A DNA stretch of 64,000 nt from an uncultured virus (IMG/VR IMGVR_UViG_2822368973_000001) (Duplodnaviria; Heunggongvirae; Uroviricota; Caudoviricetes), in IMG/VR virus record IMGVR_UViG_2822368973_000001, positions 1 to 64,000 of that record; one strand, given 5' to 3'. The position numbers were made by a program, and so were the translations under genes. Position 1 is the first letter of the stretch. Each line of letters opens with the position of its first letter. Positions 3,352 through 32,005 of the stretch are shown one piece after another. The notes below the pieces were generated by a model. The model was not told the origin of the DNA. It worked only from the letters and a program-made list of their open reading frames with translations, and ran no database searches.

Positions 3352-3399
3352 ACTTCCACTTTCGAGAATTATGTAAATAAGCTGTCCATATGGGCAGCT
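3352..3399 (+). other. dif-like site (6-bp spacer) fused to a terminator hairpin
   Basis: ACTTCCACTTT-CGAGAA-TTATGTAAATA then AGCTGTCCATATGGGCAGCT and a T-rich tract; repeated at 31958 and 63020. Confidence 0.6.
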
Positions 3400-3465
3400 T
3401 TATTTTATGTTCCCGCATAGCGTAGGTTATTTTGAAAAATGCTGGTGGTATCCCTCCCTATACAG

Positions 3466-10567: not shown

Positions 10568-11704
10568 TCAGGTGTTTTCATTAGATTTAATTATGCTCTC
10601 GAAGTTTTCCGCTGCTTGTTGCTGCATGTTCTGTGTGATGTGGCTATACTTGTCTAATGTCATTTGAATAGATGAGTGTCCTAAGCGATCTTGTACGATT
10701 TTAGGGTGTTCTCCAGCCTGAAGCATGAGTGTAGCGTGAGTATGTCGTAAGTCGTGTATACGAATTCGGGGAACACCAGCTTTTTTATAGTGATCATTCA
10801 AAAAGCGATGGGGAGCATCTATATGTAAGGGCGAATGTATCGTATTGCCGGTGAAAATATAGGCCTCTTCATCCAAGTGTATACCCCAACGGAAAAATTC
10901 TTTCTTTTTATAGGAACAGTAGGATTGTAACTTCCTTATAACAAAAGAAGAGATACTAATGCTTCTATTTGAAGACTTAGTTTTTGTAGCAGCTTTAAAT
11001 AGTCCTTTTTCTGTTTTTACAAGCGATTTATTAACCAGGATACGTTTATTATCAAAGTCAATATCTTTCCATGTTAATGCAAGTAATTCTCCGCGTCTCA
11101 TACCTGTATAGATTGCAAGTAAGAAGAACATATGGTACTTAATATTTTTTTCTTTTAGATACTGGAGGAATCGATTACATTCTTCACTAGACCATGTTTT
11201 CATTTCGCGTTGTTCTTCACGTGGTTTTTTTACCTTATTCATTATATTATCATGTATGATTTCCCATTCTACAGCGTGCTTGAAAATGCATCTTAGGCAG
11301 CGATGGATATTGCTGATTGTACCATTTGATAGTCCTTTTTCCTTAAGTTCAGCATAGTAGCTTTGAATCATTACGGGTTTAATACTTTTAATTTTTTTAT
11401 AACTAAATGGGGGAAGGATATAGAGCTTAACTAAGCTCATGTCTTTTTCATAAGATGTAATTTTTAATTCAGCTTTACGAAGAGGCTTTAACTTTTCCCA
11501 TACATCTAAAACAGTTAATTGTTTGTCATCAAAATATATTCCTTTCTCTATCTCTGTAATCATCGTTGCAGCAGCATTTTGGGCTTCTTTTTTTGTTCTA
11601 AATCCACTCTTACTTTTTTGCTGGCGTTTTCCTGTGGCCGGATCTATACCGATATCTATTGTAAAAGACCACGTATTTCCACGTTTACGAAAACTTCCTT
11701 TCAT
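10568..11704 (-). CDS. int: Prophage tyrosine integrase
   Basis: Arm-binding N-terminus (GFRTKKEA), TGMRRGELLAL, HDLRHTHAT, RLGHSSIQMTLDKYSH. Confidence 0.95.
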   Translation of the reverse strand: MKGSFRKRGNTWSFTIDIGIDPATGKRQQKSKSGFRTKKEAQNAAATMITEIEKGIYFDDKQLTVLDVWEKLKPLRKAELKITSYEKDMSLVKLYILPPFSYKKIKSIKPVMIQSYYAELKEKGLSNGTISNIHRCLRCIFKHAVEWEIIHDNIMNKVKKPREEQREMKTWSSEECNRFLQYLKEKNIKYHMFFLLAIYTGMRRGELLALTWKDIDFDNKRILVNKSLVKTEKGLFKAATKTKSSNRSISISSFVIRKLQSYCSYKKKEFFRWGIHLDEEAYIFTGNTIHSPLHIDAPHRFLNDHYKKAGVPRIRIHDLRHTHATLMLQAGEHPKIVQDRLGHSSIQMTLDKYSHITQNMQQQAAENFESIIKSNENT

Positions 11705-12280: not shown

Positions 12281-12513
12281 TAATATACAACAAAAATAAA
12301 AAACTTGGAAGAGTAGCTAAGAAGAGACAATAGATAGATAAATTAAGAAATCTTATTTCTAATAGATCTACAATACGACAGTAGTATTTTAGGTTTAGTG
12401 GGGAAATATCGACGAATATATACAATAGTATCTGTTTATGTTTTAAAAAATAAGTTAAAATATATATGGTAAATTATTCATTACTTTTCGTTTTTTACCG
12501 TAGGAGTGAGAAT

Positions 12514-13566
12514 GTGATTAAAAAAGCAATTAACTTTATTTTATCTGAAGTAGACGTACCAGCACTTAATCACCCTGGGATAAGTAAGGAGATTAAGTAT
12601 AAAGTTACAAATACTAAGGTTAGAATTAAATCTTTTAAGAAGATAGGTGATTTGAAAATTTATATGAATAGATTTTCGGATTCCTCTGAGAGTGGAAATA
12701 ATTTAGTTTATAACTCGCTAAAGAATAAAGGACTGAAAACTTACGAGGATATATATCCTGAGTTCAAAGAGAAGTTTCAACGTTATTTTGATGATATTAC
12801 AGTCTTAAATGATTTTGTTATAGGGAAGACATATACATCGTGGGATATCTCTAATTTTGCTAGAGATTATGATAATAGAAAAGGTATTTATTTAATAGGA
12901 GAGCCCTCTAATTTAAGCGCAATTTTTATTAAAGTGACTTTAGAGAATGGGAAATATGCTAATGAATGGTTAGAAGAAAATAGAGTCCTGAAATATTATT
13001 TTAAAAATAGAGCAAATAAGTTTAAGTTAGAGTACCAAGATAATTTTGCTATTTATAGTACGAAAAACACCAATATACCAATCTATGTATTTATTAAAGA
13101 AGGTACAAGCTGTGTATTACATGGTGTATTTAAATATGTGCAATATATTGAAGAAGTAGATGGTTCAAAGTGGTTTGAATTAGAGAAAATTGACCATTAT
13201 GAAACTTTACATACTTTAACTAATCAAGAATATGAGAATGACTTGGATATAAAAGTAACGAAATCTCAAATTATAAATAGCTCTGCTCGTAAAGAGCGCT
13301 TAAAACAGGCGGTCAGGAAACCTGAAGTAGTTGAAGTGGTTACTACTCAATATAAAAGAAATCCAGACGTTATTGCTGAAGTATTAGAGAGAGCGAACGG
13401 ATATTGTGAGGAATGCAAACAAGAGGCGCCATTTAAAAGAGCTAAAGATGGTACGCCGTATTTAGAGGTCCATCATGTTGTTCCTCTTGCACAGGGAGGA
13501 GAGGATTCAGTAGAGAATGCTGTAGCCCTATGTCCAAACTGTCATAGGAAAGCGCATTATGGTTAG
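12514..13566 (+). CDS. HNH endonuclease, McrA-like C-terminus
   Basis: CEEC...LEVHHVVPLAQGGEDSVENAVALCPNCHRKAH; GTG start after AGGAG. Confidence 0.85.
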   Translation: MIKKAINFILSEVDVPALNHPGISKEIKYKVTNTKVRIKSFKKIGDLKIYMNRFSDSSESGNNLVYNSLKNKGLKTYEDIYPEFKEKFQRYFDDITVLNDFVIGKTYTSWDISNFARDYDNRKGIYLIGEPSNLSAIFIKVTLENGKYANEWLEENRVLKYYFKNRANKFKLEYQDNFAIYSTKNTNIPIYVFIKEGTSCVLHGVFKYVQYIEEVDGSKWFELEKIDHYETLHTLTNQEYENDLDIKVTKSQIINSSARKERLKQAVRKPEVVEVVTTQYKRNPDVIAEVLERANGYCEECKQEAPFKRAKDGTPYLEVHHVVPLAQGGEDSVENAVALCPNCHRKAHYG

Positions 13567-13609
13567 AAAAATGTATTGTAAATGGATATAAATATAAAGG
13601 AGAGGGAAA

Positions 13610-14374
13610 ATGGCAGACAGAGATGAAAATGATATTAGGGATGGGAAATTTGAAGACACAGCTGAATTTTTCATAGCAGAAATGTTGTTTCATAGACACT
13701 CAGATTCATTTTTAGATAAATATAATCATATAAGAGAAGATATTGAACAAGCAATAAGTAAAAGAATGGGAGAATTAAAATTCAAGGTATCTGAACCGGA
13801 GAAGAAAAGGTTGGAAGCAGGATCTTTGAATAAAGCTTTAAAGTCAAGTTTGAGAAGTGTAGAGGGGCTAAAATTTGAAGTTGAATGTAAAGAGGGAGTA
13901 TTATATGACTCACCCAAAACAGGAGGTTTCGATTTTGCAATATTTGACAATCAATACAATGTAGTGAATTTTAGAAATTTTTGTTTTGGAAGAAGAGCAA
14001 TATATAAAGGTGAGGCTGAATGGAATAGACAATTACAAAATAGAGAAGAATGGAAAGATGTTGCTGAAACATTGGAATTACCTGAAATGAAGAGACGAGG
14101 TGAGGATTTATATCATAAAAAAGCAAAGCCTACAGTAGTTGGCGAAATTCAATTTGGGAACTGGGGTTTAGGCTATTATGACATAATTAAAGTAATTCAT
14201 TTAGAAGAATCTCTAGAGGTTGATCTTTTAATATATATTACAGCAACAGGTAATTTACAAACTTATTTAAGTAAAAGTATAGTAACCTTTAATAGAATGA
14301 AAAAAACCTTGGAGCAATATGGAGGAATTGTAAAGGTCCCAGTATGGCTTATAGGACTTGATATAAGGGAGTAA
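13610..14374 (+). CDS. BglII/BstYI-like restriction endonuclease fold protein
   Basis: GGFDF...VGEIQFGN (D...ExQ active-site pattern). Confidence 0.6.
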   Translation: MADRDENDIRDGKFEDTAEFFIAEMLFHRHSDSFLDKYNHIREDIEQAISKRMGELKFKVSEPEKKRLEAGSLNKALKSSLRSVEGLKFEVECKEGVLYDSPKTGGFDFAIFDNQYNVVNFRNFCFGRRAIYKGEAEWNRQLQNREEWKDVAETLELPEMKRRGEDLYHKKAKPTVVGEIQFGNWGLGYYDIIKVIHLEESLEVDLLIYITATGNLQTYLSKSIVTFNRMKKTLEQYGGIVKVPVWLIGLDIRE

Positions 14375-14482
14375 GTTGCTAAAATGTAAATGTTAAATAT
14401 GCTAAATAAGTTCATCGCTTTATAAAGGTTTTTATTTTATATAATGAGATTTGAAAAATATAAATATAGGTGGAGATGAAAC

Positions 14483-15952
14483 ATGACCAATTCATCAGTA
14501 AATATATTGACAACAACCATTACTGTTAATCCCTCAGATAATATATTTAAAGAACTGGGTAACAATACATATGATTTTAATGATTTGATTTCGGAGTTTA
14601 TTGATAATTCGATAGGAGCTATGGATTCAGAAAGAGTTCTTGAAGTTTATGTAGAAATTGGATTATCTAAAACAAGAGAAGAAGAATCATATTTTCTAAT
14701 TAGGGATAATGCTAAGGGAATTGTAAGGGAGTTTTTAGGGAAGGCACTTTCACCAGGTGGAACATCTGGTGGGAGAACTCTTAACGAGCATGGGTTAGGT
14801 ATGAAACAAGCTATTGCAGCATTAGGGGAATTAGAGCATCTAATTACAAAAACTAAAGAAGATAAACAGGCAGTTTGTATAAATAAGTTGAAATTTGGGG
14901 ATATAGAAGGTACTTTAATCGATGTACCTTGGAATCATGGAACTGAAATTAAAGTTAAAAGAATTAATAATATAGTACCAACTTCATCACAGAAATTTAC
15001 ACAATCAGTACAAGTTTATTTGGGAGCTAGATACAGAAGATTTTTACGCGAGAATAATAAGAAAATGCAATTAAATATTAAGTTATTAAACCTGGATGTA
15101 AACAATGGGACACCAAAGATTACAAATGAATGGGAAATCAAAGAAATTAACCCTGTTTATTTTCATCCCAATAGGAGAATAAATGAGCCAGTAACTAATA
15201 GAAAGATAATTAAGGGAAAAGGTTGGGAAGCAGCATTTACGTTTGGTTATGCTCCTACCGACAAACAATATGAAGATTTAGGACTAGAGCCTCCTAAAAA
15301 ATATGAGCCATACTATGTATCTATCAATAAACAAGGTTTTGATATTTTAAATAACGATAGAGTAATTAAATTTCATCAATTAAGTGAAATAGGAGTGGTA
15401 GAGACTAGACATAATCGATTTAATTATATTAGAGGAGAAATCGATTTAATTAGAGGATTTACTACAGCAATTACTAAGAATAATATAATAATGGATAATC
15501 ATTTTTCGGAACTTATACAGGAAGTTAAAGATATTTTAAATAAAAATGATTTCTTTGATAGAAAAAGTTATCCAGATGAAATACCCGAAGTGTTATTAAG
15601 AGATAGACTAGTACATCATTTTAAAACCAGTAAACTTTATGGGAAAAAAGATGTTAGAACAGAGTACCCAGTTCAAGCTTTAGGGGGATTTATAGATATT
15701 TTAGCAGATAATGAAGCATGGGAATTAAAAATAGGAGATGCTGATGGGTTAGCGGTATACCAATTATTTGCTTATATGGACATGGGCAAGATTGATAATG
15801 GCTATCTTGTAGCGAAATCGTTTAAGACAGGTGCAGAATCTGCAGCTAAATTTATAGAAGAAAACCATAATAAAAAAATTGATTTAATTTTAAGAGATGA
15901 ACTGCCAATAAATCTCCCTCCGACTGAAGAAGAATTGAAAAAATATTACTAG
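14483..15952 (+). CDS. GHKL (MORC/HSP90-like) ATPase with C-terminal PD-(D/E)xK-like domain
   Basis: ISEFIDNS, RDNAKGI, HGLGMK, HGTEI; C-terminal IDILADNEAWELK...YQLFAY. Confidence 0.75.
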   Translation: MTNSSVNILTTTITVNPSDNIFKELGNNTYDFNDLISEFIDNSIGAMDSERVLEVYVEIGLSKTREEESYFLIRDNAKGIVREFLGKALSPGGTSGGRTLNEHGLGMKQAIAALGELEHLITKTKEDKQAVCINKLKFGDIEGTLIDVPWNHGTEIKVKRINNIVPTSSQKFTQSVQVYLGARYRRFLRENNKKMQLNIKLLNLDVNNGTPKITNEWEIKEINPVYFHPNRRINEPVTNRKIIKGKGWEAAFTFGYAPTDKQYEDLGLEPPKKYEPYYVSINKQGFDILNNDRVIKFHQLSEIGVVETRHNRFNYIRGEIDLIRGFTTAITKNNIIMDNHFSELIQEVKDILNKNDFFDRKSYPDEIPEVLLRDRLVHHFKTSKLYGKKDVRTEYPVQALGGFIDILADNEAWELKIGDADGLAVYQLFAYMDMGKIDNGYLVAKSFKTGAESAAKFIEENHNKKIDLILRDELPINLPPTEEELKKYY

Positions 15953-21441: not shown

Positions 21442-21867
21442 TTATAGGGACTTTATAGCGAAATGTATATCTAAACAGAATTTTCCGCTTGCACTGCCAG
21501 GTTCTAAGAGACGAATAGTAACTGATTGTGTATCTTCAATTGTTTTGGAAATTGAATTTCCAGGAGGGACTATGAAAAGGATGGACTTACTCATGCTTTG
21601 TTGTACGCTAACTTCAATTAGTGAACCTTGTAAACTGTTAAAGACTGTGACAGTAGCAGTAACAGGTTGTTCTATTCTCTTTTCCCAAACTTCTAGAAAG
21701 GTAGGGTTGTCATTAAGTAGAAAGTTACCACAAATTTCATTACATACAAGTTTTTGTTTTTCTTTTGGTATTGGTAATGAATCACAGGTTGGTATTGGAA
21801 AAGCACAGGGTATTGGAAATAGATATTTAAAATCCAAAGAATTTTTTTTCATAATATAATGCCTCAT
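21442..21867 (-). CDS. DUF3992/Ena-like endospore appendage protein with exosporium-leader-like N-terminus
   Basis: FPIPCAFPIP leader; VCNEICGN, IVPPGNSISKT, GKFC motifs. Confidence 0.65.
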   Translation of the reverse strand: MRHYIMKKNSLDFKYLFPIPCAFPIPTCDSLPIPKEKQKLVCNEICGNFLLNDNPTFLEVWEKRIEQPVTATVTVFNSLQGSLIEVSVQQSMSKSILFIVPPGNSISKTIEDTQSVTIRLLEPGSASGKFCLDIHFAIKSL

Positions 21868-21945
21868 TTCAATAGTATAAGCGTTGTATATAAATTAAGA
21901 AAAAGATATTAAATCCAAAATGAATTAATATCTTTTTCTGACAAT

Positions 21946-22287
21946 CTATGCTACTTGACGTGCAGCTTCAACACAAACTCTACCACTAACAGGTTGACCA
22001 GCGGTGCCAGAAAAAGCAACCAATGTTCCTATGTTTGACACAAAAACAGTTTGGCTATTACCTGGAGTTATTGGGCCAATAATATTTGTACCATTGTTCG
22101 CTAAAAAGGCAGTAATTGCACCACTTGCAGGGTTATTAGTAAGAGTGACATAGCCGGAAAGAACTGGACCTCCAGTATTGTTAAATACTGTAGCTCCACC
22201 AACTACATCACCTCCTGTTGTCGTGAAAGAATTGCATGTAGAAATAGAGACAAACTGAGGGTCTGTACAACAACACATATACAACAT
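21946..22287 (-). CDS. DUF3992/Ena-like endospore appendage subunit
   Basis: Cys-rich N-terminus (MCCC), ITPGNSQTVFV, SGRVC. Confidence 0.6.
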   Translation of the reverse strand: MLYMCCCTDPQFVSISTCNSFTTTGGDVVGGATVFNNTGGPVLSGYVTLTNNPASGAITAFLANNGTNIIGPITPGNSQTVFVSNIGTLVAFSGTAGQPVSGRVCVEAARQVA

Positions 22288-23784: not shown

Positions 23785-23900
23785 ATTAGTACCGTCCTAA
23801 AAGAGAATTATTTGGATTTTAATATGGTATGTAAAAAAAGGTGCATTTATACAAGGGAAGGGTAGCTAGCAAAAGTAAAACAAAATCTTTATTTAAACAT

Positions 23901-23990
23901 AAAAAGAGCGCCCGGGAAAGCACTCTTTGACCAAGGCTCATATCGAAAAGTGGTAACAATATATCCTATGTGTATTTTTAACGTATGTGC
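23901..23990 (-). ncRNA. Candidate sRNA unit, sigmaK-type promoter
   Basis: GCACA-15-CATAGGAT, short core, AAAGAGTGC/GCGCTCTTTTT terminator. Confidence 0.55.
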
Positions 23991-24025
23991 AAATTCTAAA
24001 CAAAATCTTTATTTCATAACAAGCG

Positions 24026-24127
24026 AAAAAGAGCACACATATAAGCGTGCTCAGAGACAAGAAAGGTAGATTTCCATGAGTGGAGAGTCTCCATACAATA
24101 ACGTATACTTGTCAGGTATAAATGCGA
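24026..24127 (-). ncRNA. Candidate sRNA unit, sigmaK-type promoter
   Basis: TCGCA-15-TATACGTT, core antisense to GAAAGGTAGATTTCCATG, GAGCAC terminator. Confidence 0.55.
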
Positions 24128-24146
24128 CAAGTTTTTATTCCATGAG

Positions 24147-24253
24147 AAAAGAGCACTTACTTACGGTGCTCTTTAGGGAAAAAGTGAAATGTTGAAAAGT
24201 AGATTAGGGTTTCTTGCTTCGAAATAATATATGACCATTTCATCGTAATGTGA
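24147..24253 (-). ncRNA. Candidate sRNA unit, sigmaK-type promoter
   Basis: TCACA-15-CATATATT, core antisense to AGGGAAAAAGTGAAATG, GAGCAC terminator. Confidence 0.62.
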
Positions 24254-24332
24254 CAATGAATCGCTAATGCTAACTACTTGTTGAAAAAAGAATCCCCTCT
24301 AGATTATTGAATGCCAGAGCTTCAAGAAATAA

Positions 24333-25649
24333 TTAATTTAACTTTTCAATTACAATCGAAGCATTTATATTTGTTTGTGTTCCACCTGCTAAAGTTTGCA
24401 AAGTAACTGCAGCAGCGGAAGTATGATTATTAAGGGTAATAATATCACCTGCGGCTAAAGAGAGAATTGTTTGCCCATTGTTTTGCTGAGTTCCTGCACC
24501 TGATCCATAAACTGCGCTGGTAACCGGAGCACCATTTAAAAAAAGTGTGAATTGATTAGGCTCAACTCCTGATACAGAAAAAGAAATTTTATAATCTCCT
24601 GCATTAAGAACCATTAATTGAGAAGTTCCCAGTGTATGAGTAAAACCAGATGTCATTCTACCATGTGAATTAAAAAGAATAGGTGCTTCTAAGGCAACAA
24701 CTTGAGCTGCTGTATTGAAAACATAAGCATAATGAGATAACCCAGATACTGTAAGACCGGTAGGCCCAGTAGGTCCGGTAGCTCCAGCGGTTCCTGGTAA
24801 TCCAGTAGGCCCAGGAATGCCTTGGATGCCTTGGATACCTTGAAGCCCAGTTGGGCCAGTCGGGCCGATAGGTCCAATAAGTCCCGGATCACCTTGAATA
24901 CCTTGGATACCCTGAATTCCAGTCGCCCCAGTTATTCCAGTGGGTCCAATAGGACCAATAGGCCCCGGATTACCTTGAATCCCCTGAATCCCTTGACTTC
25001 CTTGAGGTCCAGTGGGGCCAGGAATGCCTTGGATCCCTTGGATACCTTGAAGTCCGGTTGGTCCTGGTGACCCAGAAGGTCCAGTGGGGCCAGTCACTCC
25101 GGTTGGTCCTGGTGGTCCCCCAGAAGGTCCGGTCGGGCCCGTTGGTCCTGGCGGTCCCCCGGAAGGGCCGGTAGGTCCAACAGCTCCAGAAGGTCCAGTT
25201 GGACCTACAGAACCAGGAATGCCAGGAATCCCTTGAGGGCCGGTCGGCCCAGGAATCCCTTGAATCCCTTGAATGCCAGGAATCCCTTGAATGCCAGGAA
25301 TCCCTTGAATTCCAGTGACCCCTGTTATTCCAGTGGGTCCAATAGGACCTTGAATGCCAGGAATGCCTTGGATCCCTTGGATACCTTGAATTCCAGAAGG
25401 TCCAGTTGGACCAATAGATCCAGAAATCCCAGGAATCCCTTGAGGTCCAGAAATACCTTGAGGCCCAGTAGGTCCCAGGCTACCTTGAATTCCAGTAGGC
25501 CCGGTAGGTCCCCGAGGTCCACCTGAAGGTCCGGTAGCTCCAGTAGGTCCCGAAGGTCCAGTAGCACCGGTTAATCCAGTAGACCCGATTTGAGGTAAAG
25601 GAAAGGCACATGGAAAGGGTATGTGACAATTCTTTTTAAATTTACTCAT
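24333..25649 (-). CDS. Collagen-like exosporium protein with BclA-type C-terminal domain
   Basis: IPFPCAFPLP leader, long GXX (GPT/GIQ) tract, C-terminal NASIVIEKL. Confidence 0.88.
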   Translation of the reverse strand: MSKFKKNCHIPFPCAFPLPQIGSTGLTGATGPSGPTGATGPSGGPRGPTGPTGIQGSLGPTGPQGISGPQGIPGISGSIGPTGPSGIQGIQGIQGIPGIQGPIGPTGITGVTGIQGIPGIQGIPGIQGIQGIPGPTGPQGIPGIPGSVGPTGPSGAVGPTGPSGGPPGPTGPTGPSGGPPGPTGVTGPTGPSGSPGPTGLQGIQGIQGIPGPTGPQGSQGIQGIQGNPGPIGPIGPTGITGATGIQGIQGIQGDPGLIGPIGPTGPTGLQGIQGIQGIPGPTGLPGTAGATGPTGPTGLTVSGLSHYAYVFNTAAQVVALEAPILFNSHGRMTSGFTHTLGTSQLMVLNAGDYKISFSVSGVEPNQFTLFLNGAPVTSAVYGSGAGTQQNNGQTILSLAAGDIITLNNHTSAAAVTLQTLAGGTQTNINASIVIEKLN

Positions 25650-26072
25650 TTTTACACCTCCCTTATAAATTAACTAACAATTTATATTTATACTTTAACA
25701 ACTTATGAGTAAACAGACACACGGGTGTAAGGAAAAACCCTACAATAATTACATAAAAGGTTTTAAGAGCAAGCCTTTATTTCACATTCCATACCAAAAA
25801 GAGCACTATATAAGTGCTCTTCGGATCAAAGCTCTTAGTGTAAAAGAGTACGTGATACCAAATGTAATTTTTTCATGGCGTGAAGTATTTGAACAAAAAG
25901 CTATTTGATACTGAAATTATCCACTTTAAAAAGAGCACTATAAAAAGTGCTCTTTCAAAAAATATTGTTATTTACTTAATTTTAATAATAACTAACAAAA
26001 AGAAATTGGAGTTTGCTTACTGTTATATAAGTTGCGAAAAATTTATTACGGCTGGGGTTACTGTAAATATTC

Positions 26073-26558
26073 TTAGTGAAATTGTTGCTGACCTTGTTGG
26101 TTACCCATTTGTTGACCTTGTTGGCCACCCATTTGCTGACCTTGTTGGTTACCCATTTGTTGACCTTGTTGACCACCCATTTGCTGGCTCACTTGATCAA
26201 CCTGTGTTTGGGCCTGTGCAATAGCTTGATTAATTTGACTTAATGTTTGATTAGATTGTAGGTACTGTAATCCTTGATTTAATGTTTGAATAGCTTGTTG
26301 GATAGTTTGCTGTAATTGTTGATCCGCTTGTTGCATTTGTTGTTGAGATTGATGACTAAATTGTTGAAGTTGTTGCATTAGTTGATTAGCTTGTTGTAAT
26401 CCTTGTTGTTGACCTTGTTGTTGACTTTGAGTTGTTTGAGATAAAGATTGTTGTAACTGTTGAATTTGGTTTTTAAGGCTAGTTAATTCTTGTGAAACTT
26501 CTAAATCAGCAGCTTTACGTGCTACTGCTTCAACTTTTTTCTCAGTACGTTTGTCCAT
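26073..26558 (-). CDS. Gln-rich low-complexity protein, probably forespore-expressed
   Basis: MG(G/N)QQGQQ 7-aa repeats; RBS TAGGAG; GTATC-17-CATTATA upstream; GAGCAC terminator at about 25928-25956. Confidence 0.75.
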   Translation of the reverse strand: MDKRTEKKVEAVARKAADLEVSQELTSLKNQIQQLQQSLSQTTQSQQQGQQQGLQQANQLMQQLQQFSHQSQQQMQQADQQLQQTIQQAIQTLNQGLQYLQSNQTLSQINQAIAQAQTQVDQVSQQMGGQQGQQMGNQQGQQMGGQQGQQMGNQQGQQQFH

Positions 26559-26687
26559 TTTAACTCCTACTTATGTAACCACATCATTGTGTGGAACATT
26601 TTTATAATGTACAAATTCTTATTTTTGATACTAAAAAATAAAATTTAAAGACTAGGGAGGAGAGGGATATGAATAGTACTTTAATCG

Positions 26688-26802
26688 AAAATAGGACAAG
26701 CAATTTTGCTTGTCCTAGAAGGAGGAAATTTCAAAACACCAAATTGACTCGTATTGGTAAACAGGTTCCTGCATAGTATGATTCAAATTAAGAAAGTTAT
26801 AC
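26688..26802 (-). ncRNA. Candidate sRNA unit, sigmaG-type promoter
   Basis: GTATA-17-CATACTA; UUUCCUCCUUCU next to the AGGACAAGC hairpin terminator. Confidence 0.65.
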
Positions 26803-26952
26803 AAAAATAGCAGGCAAAGAAACTTTGCCTGCTTGTGGGTTGAATGAGTTAGCCAATTGTGATGAAACGCCTTCCCATCCTTTTACAGGAAGAGTGAAGC
26901 CACTAGTTCGAATGGCTTAGAAGTATCGTGTGTAGTTTAGTTGAAAAATATG
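26803..26952 (-). ncRNA. Candidate sRNA unit, sigmaE-type promoter
   Basis: CATATT-14-CACACGAT; AGCAGGCAAAG hairpin plus U-rich tail. Confidence 0.5.
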
Positions 26953-27091
26953 TAAAAGAAGATAAAGAATTTATTTTATAGCAAAAAAGAGCATTATTTG
27001 TAAATGCTATTGAAAGACGAGCATCAATAATTACAAGAGATTGGCTCAATAGAACTTAGGATTTTCTTATTTCAAGGTAAAAATTAAATGT

Positions 27092-27217
27092 AAAATAGGA
27101 GAACAGATACATAGACTGTTCTCCTAAGGAGCGGGAATACTGAATTTGAAGTGCATCTCAAATGACAATCAATCAAGCGTTTCATAAATAGTATGTACTT
27201 ATGTTGAGATTTAATAC
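27092..27217 (-). ncRNA. Candidate sRNA unit, sigmaG-type promoter
   Basis: GTATT-17-CATACTA; CCGCUCCUU next to the AGGAGAACAG hairpin. Confidence 0.62.
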
Positions 27218-27340
27218 AACAAAACAGCTAGCGTAGCTAACTGTTTTATCTTAGGAAGAATTCAAGAAAATCTGAGATTCATTATGGAATAGCTATTACC
27301 AACTTATTTATAGTATGTGGATGTTTTTGTAATATTATGT
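27218..27340 (-). ncRNA. Candidate sRNA unit, sigmaG-type promoter
   Basis: ACATA-18-CATACTA; CAGTTAGC/GCTAGCTG terminator. Confidence 0.55.
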
Positions 27341-27389
27341 ATGTGTTGAGAAGTTAATAAAAATTTCATTTTGTAGAAAAGAGGGAGCT

Positions 27390-27483
27390 AAAAAAGAGCA
27401 CTATATATAAGTGCTCTAGTCGAGAGTGAGTATAAATTCCTATCATTCTATATTAGTATATGCACTGTATTATGTAGTTGCTA
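27390..27483 (-). ncRNA. Candidate sRNA unit, mother-cell-type -10
   Basis: CATATACT -10 with weak -35; GAGCAC terminator with U6. Confidence 0.5.
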
Positions 27484-27551
27484 CTAAAGTTAATGTCAGT
27501 TTTTAAAATTAGAGGTTTCTTTTAATGAAACCTCTAAAAAGACAACTAAAG

Positions 27552-27821
27552 TTACGTTATAGTAAATTCAATTGCAATAGGAGTACCCCCATCTAGGACG
27601 GCTCCTCCTACAATAGTAGCAGCTGTAATAGTATCACCAGTTTGAATAACGCCATTAATATAAAGCGTAAAAAAAGCATAAGAAGCAGGGAATGTTGTTA
27701 CAGCACCAGTGTCATCAGTGAAGTCTGTGTTAGCAAAAGTTAAATCCGCTCCAGCGGCAGTTCCTGTTGCTGCTGTACTTACAAATCGTCTTCCAGCTAT
27801 AAATGGCTTAACGATAGGCAT
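27552..27821 (-). CDS. DUF4183-like small spore-associated protein
   Basis: DFTDDTG...FFTLYINGVIQ motif; RBS GAGGTG; terminator at about 27510-27540. Confidence 0.65.
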   Translation of the reverse strand: MPIVKPFIAGRRFVSTAATGTAAGADLTFANTDFTDDTGAVTTFPASYAFFTLYINGVIQTGDTITAATIVGGAVLDGGTPIAIEFTIT

Positions 27822-27959
27822 TTATGTTCACCTCTTTTTAAGAATTAACTCGGACAAGTTTTTAGAAAGCTTGGTCCTGTATTTTATACTATGTTGTATT
27901 TCAATGAAAAGAAACGGCTTGTAAACTAGTATACAAACGCTATTTTAGTAAGGAACATT

Positions 27960-28060
27960 TAAAAGGACCCGATTAGGGGGACGGGTCCTTTTAATGAAAC
28001 AATAACCTTTACAGAATTACCAATACATTACCATAAAAGGTAATTAGTTTCCATGATGTG
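27960..28060 (-). ncRNA. Possible sRNA unit, promoter type uncertain
   Basis: AAAAGGACCCG/CGGGTCCTTTT terminator; weak sigmaA-like TGGAAA-17-TAATGT. Confidence 0.35.
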
Positions 28061-28080
28061 GATATTGAGAAATCTTTTTA

Positions 28081-28117
28081 TAGCTACTTCAGCTAGCTAC
28101 TTCAGCTAGCTACTTCA
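28081..28117. repeat. 13-bp tandem repeat TAGCTACTTCAGC, about 3 copies
   Basis: Read directly. Confidence 0.85.
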
Positions 28118-28125
28118 TTCAGCAC

Positions 28126-28250
28126 AACAAAGCAGCTAGCTGAAATAGCTAACTGCTCTATTGTACAATTTTAGAAGTTTCACTGGATACAGATATAAGT
28201 TGTAACGAAAAGTTACAACTATAGTATAAACAGAATTCGAAAAAATATGC
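28126..28250 (-). ncRNA. Candidate sRNA unit, sigmaG-type promoter
   Basis: GCATA-17-TATACTA; 5' hairpin AGTTGTAAC/GTTACAACT; AGCAGTTAGC terminator. Confidence 0.62.
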
Positions 28251-28285
28251 AGGAAAGAAAACTAAATTAAAACTTCATTCAGCAC

Positions 28286-28406
28286 AACAAAGCAATCAGC
28301 CTAATGAGCTAACTGCTTGTTGTACAAAAGAAAATTAGGCCCTACAAGTTAAGATGTGTAACTTAGAGTTACAGTTATAGTGTTAGCAGGACTGGAAATG
28401 TTATAC
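28286..28406 (-). ncRNA. Candidate sRNA unit, paralog of 28126-28250
   Basis: GTATA-17-AACACTA; TGTAAC/GTTACA hairpin; same ACTTCATTCAGCACAACAAAGCA flank. Confidence 0.6.
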
Positions 28407-28452
28407 GGGGATTAATACAACAAAAATTTCATTTTGTAGAAATAAGAAAATT

Positions 28453-28550
28453 AAAAAAGAGCACCATGCATAAGTGCTCTTTAAGATAGGAGGTAACACT
28501 TTGAGCTGAGGCTAGGTTAGAAGTATATGGTGTAAAAAAAGAAATAAGAA
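28453..28550 (-). ncRNA. Candidate sRNA unit, sigmaE/K-type promoter
   Basis: TCTTATT-13-CATATACT; core contains UUACCUCCUAU; GAGCAC terminator. Confidence 0.62.
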
Positions 28551-28575
28551 CAAAATTTTATTATTAGTTCAATAT

Positions 28576-28705
28576 AAAAAAGCAGTTAGCAAAAAGCTAA
28601 CTGCTAAGCCCTCAGAGAAAGAGGAAAAGAACATTACAGAGGTCACTGTGAATTCAAGCTGTATCAGCCCATTTATAGTATTGGACAGAATTTAGAATTT
28701 TATTC
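28576..28705 (-). ncRNA. Candidate sRNA unit, sigmaG-type promoter
   Basis: GAATA-18-AATACTA; CUUUUCCUCUUUC; perfect AGCAGTTAGC hairpin with U tract. Confidence 0.62.
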
Positions 28706-28714
28706 GAATAAACT

Positions 28715-28834
28715 AAAAAGAGCAGCTAGCAAAAGCTAACTGCTCACCTCTCGACCAAGAGAGCTAGAGTGGGAAGAATTTAAAATAACCTTTTAAATTC
28801 TTGCATAGTATCGGAAAAAATTAGAATTTTATTC
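28715..28834 (-). ncRNA. Candidate sRNA unit, sigmaG-type promoter
   Basis: GAATA-17-GATACTA; 5' hairpin AAGAATTTAAAA/TTTTAAATTCTT; GAGCAGTTAGC terminator. Confidence 0.6.
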
Positions 28835-28983
28835 ACGTAAAACTTAAATTAGGAAGTTCAATAATTGAATGTATCTATAGCATAGACAAGGTTTAAAAAT
28901 TTATTCAAGGGAAATAAGGAATGGGTACTTATTGAAAAAAGGCAGTCAAGGAGTACTTCAAGAAGCAAGAGTTGGAACGCAAT

Positions 28984-29076
28984 AAAAAGCAGTTAGCAAA
29001 AGCTAACTGCTCGAATCATGGAATGTGTTTAAGAAATGGGTTGTCTACAGTATTGACGTAATGTTGAGTTTTATTC
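28984..29076 (-). ncRNA. Candidate sRNA unit, sigmaG-type promoter
   Basis: GAATA-17-AATACTG; AGCAGTTAGC terminator. Confidence 0.6.
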
Positions 29077-29574: not shown

Positions 29575-30048
29575 GTGGTCTTACATGNNCCAAAAATTGA
29601 TAGAACAGCAACACAGGAGGAATTAGAAGGTGTGTTGGAAAGCGTACGTATACATAGACAATTTGGGGTGATGCGTAAAGAAATGAAAGTCACTCCTTCT
29701 TATGAAATACGTGAACACGGTCCTACACATACAGTTGGAAAACCATTAGAAGATGTTGCTATAGCAAATATTCAACAAAGCAAGCGAGAAGAGCGGCTTG
29801 AGAAAATGTCATTACGTATTGATCAGTTTCTAAATCGATTAGGGAACGGACGTGCAGGAAGCATTCAAAGAGATATTATTTATAAACGTTATTTAGAAGA
29901 AGAGGACGTATGTGATTACATGGTTTATAACGAAATAGGGATGTCAGAGCGTACTTATCGACGTTGGAAGTCTAAAGCATTTTATAAGCTCGCTTTTGCA
30001 CTTGGATTAGAAGTTTACGAGGCAGAAGAGACTGGAGGTAATGAATAA
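29575..30048 (+). CDS. arpU: ArpU-family late transcriptional regulator (start uncertain, Ns at 29588-29589)
   Basis: IYKRYL...VYNEIGMSERTYRRWKSKAFYKLAFAL. Confidence 0.85.
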   Translation: MVLHXPKIDRTATQEELEGVLESVRIHRQFGVMRKEMKVTPSYEIREHGPTHTVGKPLEDVAIANIQQSKREERLEKMSLRIDQFLNRLGNGRAGSIQRDIIYKRYLEEEDVCDYMVYNEIGMSERTYRRWKSKAFYKLAFALGLEVYEAEETGGNE

Positions 30049-30590
30049 TGAATTTTGTTCAGCCAATACGTGATCCAGAAGAAATACAGCAGCTGAAAGA
30101 GTATTTTAAGGAAAAGAGCTTACGTAATTACATCCTCTTCATTATGGGCATTAATACAGGCCTTAGAATCTCAGATATTTTGAAATTAAAGGTAGGAGAT
30201 GTCAAAAGCAGTCATATATCTATGCGGGAAAAGAAAACAGGGAAACAGAAACGAATACAAATTACTGCAGCGTTGAAAAGAGAACTTAAGTGGTTCATTG
30301 AAGAGCGAGAAGATAATGAGTACCTATTACAAAGTAGACAAGGTAAGAATCGCCCGATTGGTCGTAGCATGGCATATAAGATATTAAGCGGAGCAGCGGC
30401 AGAGTTTGGATTAGATGAAATAGGAACACATACACTGAGAAAGACGTACGGGTATCATATGTACATGCAAACAAAAAACATAGCATTACTCATGGAGATA
30501 TTCAATCACTCCTCAGAGAAGGTCACGTTACGTTATATAGGTGTAAATCAAGATGCAATGGATAAGGCAATGACAAGGTTTAAAATCTAA
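30048..30590 (+). CDS. Small tyrosine recombinase (catalytic domain only)
   Basis: NTGLRISDIL, GTHTLRKTYGY, FNHSS...TLRYIG. Confidence 0.92.
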   Translation: MNFVQPIRDPEEIQQLKEYFKEKSLRNYILFIMGINTGLRISDILKLKVGDVKSSHISMREKKTGKQKRIQITAALKRELKWFIEEREDNEYLLQSRQGKNRPIGRSMAYKILSGAAAEFGLDEIGTHTLRKTYGYHMYMQTKNIALLMEIFNHSSEKVTLRYIGVNQDAMDKAMTRFKI

Positions 30591-31957: not shown

Positions 31958-32005
31958 ACTTCCAGCAACGATAATTATGTAAATAAGCTGTCCAAATGGG
32001 CAGCT
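31958..32005 (+). other. dif-like site plus terminator hairpin
   Basis: ACTTCCAGCAA-CGATAA-TTATGTAAATA then AGCTGTCCAAATGGGCAGCT. Confidence 0.68.

Follow-up and report, generated by a model that had tools for sequence, protein, structure and literature searches.

Putative tandem small-RNA cassettes in a Bacillus cereus-group prophage and their complementarity to host housekeeping gene starts

Several described systems share a feature with the subject of this work, an array of short, non-coding, minus-strand cassettes in a Bacillus cereus-group prophage (uncultured virus record IMGVR_UViG_2822368973_000001, 70,682 bases). We analysed positions 1 to 64,000 of that record, and refer to this whole stretch as the window. 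DicF, from the Escherichia coli Qin prophage, is a small RNA (sRNA) that acts in trans to repress the host housekeeping mRNAs ftsZ, xylR and pykA; in the available part of its description (PMC13492144) it is one RNA family with several targets, whereas here more than 100 guide families, each in a cassette of its own, use two scaffolds and spore-type promoters. DicF has no sequence relation to the cassettes, the window giving no Rfam match at the gathering score. NsiR1 of Nostoc provides a likeness in layout: tandem sRNAs of about 60 nucleotides (nt), each with its own cell-type-specific promoter, and with variants that regulate different targets. As far as the accessible text of PMC9045159 goes, NsiR1 consists of 12 near-identical chromosomal copies, whereas the guides described here are mutually unrelated, phage-borne and swapped between phages.

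Within Bacillus, CsfG and Bvs196 are forespore (sigma-F/sigma-G) sRNAs, but the partial text of PMC9147052 presents them as single conserved chromosomal genes and describes them neither as arrayed nor as phage-borne; CsfG has no known target in that account, and Bvs196 binds spo0A and sspN-tlp. BtsR1 of B. thuringiensis is a 51-nt sRNA of the B. cereus group that pairs over a ribosome-binding site. It is set apart by its description: the part available (PMC5758910) gives one gene that lies between lysR and merR and is active from exponential phase onward, and makes no mention of a prophage. Phages are also known to tap the host sporulation programme by encoding sporulation sigma factors; these, in the available portion of PMC9429907, are protein regulators of transcription, whereas here host sigma factors would make RNA regulators of translation. 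The cassettes are like DicF in how they would work and like NsiR1 in how they are laid out, and are a member of neither. We found no paper describing them in the open literature, a search that did not cover subscription journals; transcriptome supplements for the B. cereus group may list single units. What is new here is the host targets of the cassettes.

The window and related loci contain oriented promoter-guide-terminator cassettes on two scaffolds, with exchangeable guides, conservation, and complementarity to four housekeeping gene starts beyond chance. We conclude that the units are probably forespore sRNAs, encoded by phages as exchangeable cassettes, that repress translation of host housekeeping genes by pairing with their start regions.

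Cassette architecture across related loci

Relatives were collected using an integrase-family gene as anchor. We fetched 80 viral and 80 genomic loci and scanned the window together with loci L001-L118; two loci gave no anchor. The scan returned 1,007 minus-strand terminators, 930 of which close no open reading frame (ORF) of at least 40 amino acids (aa). Among spacings of less than 400 nt between terminators, 307 of 508 fall at 100-159 nt. There are 828 non-coding units within 8 kb, forming 242 core families; 107 families bear a promoter, on a sigma-G-like or a sigma-K-like scaffold. The layout is promoter, core, terminator, and the predicted minus-strand RNAs are 55-95 nt long. Thus, a short non-coding core lies between its own promoter and an intrinsic terminator, as expected of an sRNA gene. 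The 20 units of the window represent 20 different core families, and hence are not near-identical repeat copies. At least one promoter-bearing unit is present in 78 of the 96 loci that have at least 6 kb upstream (median 4, maximum 16), although some loci are near duplicates and the loci are not independent.

Motif 1, G[AT]ATAA-N15-CATACTA, is found in 37% of 318 units, and motif 2, T-CAC-N13-16-CATA---T, in 48%; the corresponding figure for shuffles or the opposite strand is 0-1%. Promoter and terminator types are strictly matched: motif 1 is paired with a CAGTTAG-type terminator in 35 of 35 families and never with a GAGCAC-type terminator (35:0), and motif 2 is paired with the GAGCAC-type in 36 of 36 (0:36). 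We read motif 1 as a putative sigma-G promoter and motif 2 as a putative sigma-K promoter; some sigma-K-type members could be sigma-E instead. Motif 1 was named by comparison with what we take to be the sigma-G consensus. That consensus appears in figures only in the portions of PMC7438776 and PMC5942855 that are available, and motif 2 agrees with the sigma-K elements quoted in the accessible part of PMC4383634. The pattern GTATA-17-CATACTA, with one mismatch allowed, precedes 6 of 15 host genes for small acid-soluble spore proteins (SASP) vs 2 of 55 ribosomal-cluster genes. An attempt at a third promoter model found no seed set. Eleven window units have promoter scores of at least 9, and two further family members score lower.

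The accessory zone that contains the array also carries an oriented AT-rich junction motif, with eight copies on the plus strand and two on the minus strand. In contigs of other strains, array joints cluster at cassette borders. Pieces of the zone recur across Bacillus phages, almost always without annotation.

Predicted pairing of guides with host gene starts

We searched 13 window cores singly against five or six B. cereus-group genomes, with host matches from up to 30 loci examined per batch. G001 (L276, L279, L282, L285, L322) was dropped, since its gene starts abut the upstream stop and it seems to lack intergenic DNA. For three of the 13 cores, which are three of the six sigma-G-type cores, all the genomes searched contain a match at a gene start, in each case in antisense orientation. 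Their cassettes, in which a pairing block may be accompanied by a tract complementary to Shine-Dalgarno (SD) sequences, are as follows; we name window units by terminator position (e.g. 26694, 27098, 28292, 28459, 28989).

26688..26802, minus strand: sigma-G-type cassette, rplF guide; RNA about 26767 to 26688; promoter score 20.5
Minus strand, parts of the rplF-type cassette: pairing block 26746-26768; anti-SD tract 26718-26725; terminator 26694-26715
27092..27217, minus strand: sigma-G-type cassette, pdhB guide; RNA about 27182 to 27092; promoter score 14.0
Minus strand, parts of the pdhB-type cassette: pairing block 27157-27178; anti-SD tract 27126-27133; terminator 27098-27124
28286..28406, minus strand: sigma-G-type cassette, rplQ guide; RNA about 28371 to 28286; promoter score 16.6
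Minus strand, parts of the rplQ-type cassette: pairing block 28329-28349; terminator 28292-28316

Unit 26694 matches the start codon of rplF (ribosomal protein L6) in five of five genomes (E 0.045-0.087). Unit 27098 matches codons 2-9 of pdhB, the host gene for pyruvate dehydrogenase (PDH) E1-beta, plus its SD, in six of six (E 0.085-0.09). Unit 28292 matches codons 4-10 of rplQ (L17) at 20 of 21 nt (E 0.013), and this is the top non-homologous match in all six genomes. The three products are assigned by NCBIfam to L6, L17 and PDH E1-beta, although PDH E1-beta falls one bit short of its cut-off. For a background of random places, 101 of 4,804 draws (2.1%) count as start region; the binomial probability is 0.0018 for three of 12 cores and 0.00018 for three of six sigma-G-type cores, and by arithmetic is about 0.002 for the true n of 13. 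Imperfect complementarity to the initiation region of a distant mRNA, beyond chance, was therefore found for three of the 13 cores and not for the other ten.

Folding predicts two-part duplexes, in which the 5' part of the RNA covers the first codons and the terminator-proximal CU tract lies on or near the SD. Cofolding gains are -25.3 (rplF), -22.9 (pdhB) and -27.3 (rplQ) kcal/mol, as compared with shuffled means near -7, and for each guide none of 200 shuffles reached the observed gain. Of the three targets, each guide favours its own. Against 68 start regions, the pdhB and rplQ guides are both best on their own targets (z -4.8 and -5.5, respectively). With seed-selected loci dropped, conservation is higher within the pairing block than elsewhere in the core, both for rplF (0.84 vs 0.69, 15 rows) and for pdhB (0.91 vs 0.67, 7 rows), and a diverged pdhB-type variant fits the host better than the window's own copy.

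A fourth guide comes from the relatives. The commonest guide of all (20 loci; e.g. L003:3546-3605) spans the SD and start of adk. Genome-wide, this match has E 0.084-0.16 in three of six genomes, is a 14-mer in two more, and is absent from one. We used the 68 starts of ribosomal-protein and PDH clusters as an out-of-sample set, scoring each guide against its own dinucleotide shuffles. Outside the discovery set, 6 of 44 sigma-G families reach p <= 0.05 (binomial 0.02) vs 4 of 58 sigma-K families, and the best of these sigma-G families is the adk guide, at the floor p of 0.01. In two control sets the counts were 1 of 49 G and 7 of 58 K (114 starts, p <= 0.06), and 2 of 50 G and 4 of 59 K (48 exosporium-cluster starts). 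Hence, there is no sigma-K enrichment in the exosporium cluster (4 of 59) or in SASP/collagen neighbourhoods (7 of 58 at p <= 0.06). We take the exosporium cluster to be the one with bclA, exsY and cotY, judging by N-termini; one 32-kb control region is not the exosporium cluster. All 47 locus records of the four guides (rplF, pdhB, rplQ and adk) are G-type, and one or more of these guides occur in 33 of the 96 loci.

Other families gave observations of a different kind. A second guide on the rplQ scaffold (L070:7329-7388, L014, L040), often beside the first in the same array, yielded no start-region target. L113 (family 217), family 42 and family 93 form candidate pairs with ribosomal-cluster starts (p 0.01-0.06); these are presumably the starts of rplR-, fusA- and cysS-like genes, going by their N-termini. 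The core of family 25 (L008, L021, L028; L271-L273) resembles the start of a phage gene, which we take to be recU-like, and, less closely, that of a host rplB-like gene. Family 4, a sigma-K-type family that the window lacks, occurs in L005, L011, L012 and 22 further loci at a distance of 3-5 kb ahead of the anchor gene, and its conserved core is antisense to Gln-Gly-Ile-Gln-Gly collagen repeats. Its best duplexes, with a 947-aa host collagen gene, reach -52 to -56 kcal/mol vs about -36 for shuffled sequence; for the window's own collagen gene the opposite strand scores equally well. Since these repeats lie inside coding regions, family 4 suggests that guides need not aim at ribosome-binding sites.

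Proposed action and alternative explanations

Under the reading that we favour, each cassette would comprise a host sporulation promoter, a guide of 30-65 nt and an intrinsic terminator, and would produce a trans-acting RNA. The sigma-G-type cassettes would be transcribed in the late forespore. Their RNAs are predicted to pair with the starts of rplF, rplQ and pdhB, and of adk in relatives, at the start codon or first codons and often at the SD. Pairing over the start codon or first codons usually blocks initiation; here it might prevent 30S loading, or trigger cleavage or recruit a nuclease. Since the targets are inner genes of large, coupled ribosomal-protein and PDH operons, ribosome assembly and pyruvate/adenylate flux would be expected to fall. 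The maturing spore would then build fewer ribosomes and run at a lower energy flux; if the RNAs are stored, this would apply at early outgrowth instead. The phage could benefit from earlier shutdown of the lysogen's spore, or from a delay in outgrowth that works in its favour. For the sigma-K-type cassettes, a role as mother-cell guides with short seeds centred on the SD is probable. We suggest, tentatively, a wider scheme that is possible but that we would not yet back: a programmable guide library with two scaffolds, one per spore compartment, and more than 100 guides swapped between phages at the junction motif, in which forespore guides would silence the genes for ribosomal proteins, PDH and adenylate kinase, thereby setting how the lysogen's spore shuts down or wakes, and mother-cell guides, such as that of family 4 against collagen repeats, would edit spore-surface genes.

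A sequence-only reading of the array had begun from the cores, which on the plus strand look like ribosome-binding sites, and had proposed that the minus-strand RNAs expose anti-SD tracts, often right next to the terminator. All eight of its examples (23945, 24061, 24175, 26718, 27126, 27422, 28486 and 28617) lie at those positions, just inside minus-strand intrinsic terminators. Of 44 occurrences of CCTCC, 33 precede the hairpin by 10-29 nt. SD-likeness among the eight words is uneven: four (26718, 27126, 27422 and 28486) pair with the anti-SD 11-mer at -8 kcal/mol or below, and the other four at -3.9 to -6.8 kcal/mol. Shuffle tests showed no SD enrichment in the window alone, where the mean dG of 17 cores is -7.17 vs -7.28 in dinucleotide shuffles, a level reached in 183 of 300 shuffles that keep dinucleotides and in 27 of 300 that keep mononucleotides; only 28459 stands out singly (p printed as 0.00, 300 shuffles). 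Enrichment did appear across the 107 families, whose mean dG was reached by none of 100 shuffles. Exact anti-SD matches of at least 5 nt occur in the RNA of 50 of the 107 families and on the opposite strand of 8 of 107, with 27.1 expected from mononucleotide and 38.6 from dinucleotide shuffles. Thus, the family-wide anti-SD bias is real but modest, and alone would not carry the guide inference.

The same reading had made every unit a guide against the start of a specific host or competing-phage mRNA. Our searches support this for three of 13 cores (rplF, pdhB and rplQ) and for the adk-type cassette of relatives. They do not for six of the eight examples (23945, 24061, 24175, 27422, 28486 and 28617), which have no shared start-region match; conversely, 28292, one of the three assigned guides, was not among the examples and has no classic SD word. 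Specificity appears to lie mainly in the start codon and first ten codons, the anti-SD tract by the terminator being a second, shorter contact. Competing-phage targets were not supported: in a wobble-tolerant scan, 2,355 mostly phage start regions scored 33.3 vs 32.6 for reversed controls, and BLAST of 384 cores against 2,604 ORF transcripts did no better than controls, the matches being mostly the units themselves. SD-centred pattern searches gave counts like those of reversed controls and no shared target; they missed pdhB because its informative pairing is downstream of the SD.

Several observations weigh against host-directed guides. Ten of the 13 cores, namely three of sigma-G type, every one of the six sigma-K-type cores and one for which no promoter was recognised, have no shared start-region match among the matches listed from the five or six genomes, and those genomes come from relatives rather than from the host itself. 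Taken one by one, the E-values (0.013-0.09) are modest, and in AT-rich genomes they may come out lower than they should; moreover, conserved genes give shared matches more readily than the random background allows. The rplF match is the best non-homologous one in four genomes and second in one, the pdhB match is best in five and tied in one, and the adk match is outranked by other non-homologous matches in some genomes, besides being only a 14-mer in two and missing from one of six. The rplF guide pairs equally well with the start of an EF-G-like gene (-24.3 vs -22.8). The rplQ block is no better conserved than its scaffold (0.86 vs 0.91), homologues gathered by similarity favour conserved blocks, and the host target stretches are too nearly invariant to reveal guide-target covariation. 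With the trained G matrix, just one of the 15 SASP genes has a score of at least 9 in its 110 nt of upstream sequence. Finally, public RNA runs consist of contigs without strand or ends, with shares of about 0.2 that are mostly the collagen gene; parts without cover are uninformative.

Some of these points would also suit RNAs that are expressed but have low specificity, CU-rich molecules that touch many SDs or act as protein sponges, with the three matches incidental. The family-wide anti-SD bias, the ten of 13 cores without a specific match, an SD-like seed common to several K families and the lack of K enrichment on the 48 exosporium-cluster starts (4 of 59) all fit such RNAs. However, each of the three matches is away from the SD and extends over 21-27 nt, two of the three fall in the conserved part, and different guides occupy one scaffold, so we consider this explanation unlikely for the array as a whole; it may apply to the sigma-K class even if guides hold for sigma-G. 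If the RNAs do pair with these starts, they could instead process or protect the mRNAs, keeping, for example, ribosomal-protein and PDH messages for quick outgrowth. The same complementarity would serve, and each duplex has a central mismatch that is kept among variants, but the duplexes cover the start codon or codons 2-10, often with the SD, where by the rule given above pairing usually blocks initiation. Protection thus seems distinctly unlikely, and repression the better guess. In favour of protection, a sigma-G sRNA of B. velezensis has been proposed, in the available part of PMC9147052, to stabilise some targets and repress others.

It is more improbable still that the units are non-functional relics of shuffled cassettes, with promoters and terminators from lost spore genes, SD words from plus-strand early genes, and chance or captured host fragments. 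The zone is indeed a cassette-swapping region with a junction motif and joints at cassette borders, the core of family 25 is like the start of a phage recU-like gene, and the window's SD signal is not above shuffles. Relics would not, however, be expected to retain a tight unit length (307 of 508 spacings under 400 nt at 100-159 nt), intact promoters matched to class, guide blocks conserved across phages, and an antisense strand in all three cases. We give very little credence to a functional plus strand, whether as a source of very small peptides or as decoys that copy host gene starts within a phage early transcript. Mini-ORFs exist, and one reads like the L6 N-terminus (10 aa), but they start at least 18 nt from the SD words, the block of the rplQ-type copy contains no start codon, and promoters and terminators face the opposite way. 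Overall, the plus-strand SD-like words open no credible gene, only ORFs of 2-39 aa; with no credible ORF under the cores, there is no overlap with a plus-strand target gene of the cis-antisense or type I antitoxin kind. Repression by start-region pairing therefore remains the reading that we prefer.

Remaining units, surroundings and significance

The other units of the array are listed below.

23900..23956, minus strand: sigma-K-type unit; promoter score 15.1; no target found in host genomes
24025..24095, minus strand: unit of a widespread sigma-K-type family (24 loci); low promoter score; no target found
24145..24219, minus strand: sigma-K-type unit; promoter score 11.5; no target found in host genomes
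25795..25850, minus strand: sigma-K-type unit; promoter score 11.1; no start-region target found
26804..26925, minus strand: conserved unit adjoining the rplF-type cassette; no promoter recognised; no target found
27219..27304, minus strand: sigma-G-type unit; promoter score 15.9; no start-region match common to genomes
27390..27448, minus strand: sigma-K-type unit; promoter score 14.6; no target found in host genomes
28453..28515, minus strand: sigma-K-type unit, strongest anti-SD, conserved (18 loci); promoter score 7.1; weak rplE-start likeness
28576..28669, minus strand: sigma-G-type unit with CU-rich tract; promoter score 18.9; shared matches within coding regions only
28714..28799, minus strand: sigma-G-type unit, outside the span of the sequence-only reading; promoter score 17.4; no target found in host genomes
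28983..29041, minus strand: sigma-G-type unit on the commonest scaffold (28989); promoter score 16.9

The copy at 28983..29041 lacks the adk-matching guide, scoring 12 against the adk start, as compared with 37-38 for the best-matching relatives. We rejected rplE as a target of 28459 (score 26, not among the best in the start-region scan). The spoVD-murE hairpin as a target of 28459 and the leader hairpin of a 149-aa membrane gene as a target of 24031 were likewise unsupported and rejected. Positions 28077-28317 contain duplicated, partly decayed copies of the terminator and 5' hairpin of the rplQ-type cassette.

The prophage has its integrase at 10568-11704 and terminase genes from 35006 on. 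The accessory zone lies between the replication genes and the integrase-family gene at 30048, and carries minus-strand spore genes. Over the 10 kb leading up to the integrase-like gene, there are 23 terminator-like hairpins on the minus strand vs 4 on the plus strand. Features in and around the array are as follows.

21442..22287, minus strand: two endospore-appendage (Ena) genes (Pfam Enas), upstream in the same accessory zone as the array
24333..25649, minus strand: BclA-like collagen spore-surface gene within the array (Pfam Collagen and BclA_C), with a sigma-K-like promoter (K score 12.2)
26073..26558, minus strand: Gln-rich 161-aa ORF within the array, with 24-nt repeats; no convincing Pfam family
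27552..27821, minus strand: DUF4183 gene (Pfam) within the array
29575..30590, plus strand: 157-aa ORF (no Pfam match; presumably ArpU-like) and the integrase-family gene closing the accessory zone
22436, 23078, 23578, 23880, 24000, 25959, 28420 and 29259: junction motif at cassette borders

Two further regions lie outside the zone. Genes for an HNH nuclease, a BglII-like endonuclease and an HATPase (Pfam) at 12466-15952, adjoining the integrase, form a possible defence island. Stretches 1384-1500 and 3381-3450 are similar to the integrase-family gene, near 30450-30530, and to a hairpin region at 31987; they are perhaps what is left of an older prophage.

For late sporulation, the available text of PMC9147052 indicates that known sRNA targets are few; our analysis proposes four concrete sRNA-target pairs for that stage. 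The proposal makes testable how the developing spore winds down translation, and whether prophages underlie differences between strains in dormancy and outgrowth. The cassettes might also serve as a natural Bacillus scaffold for targeted gene knock-down. If the proposal is true, prophages would reprogramme spore physiology post-transcriptionally, compartment by compartment, using a set of modular RNA tools that 78 of the 96 related loci carry.

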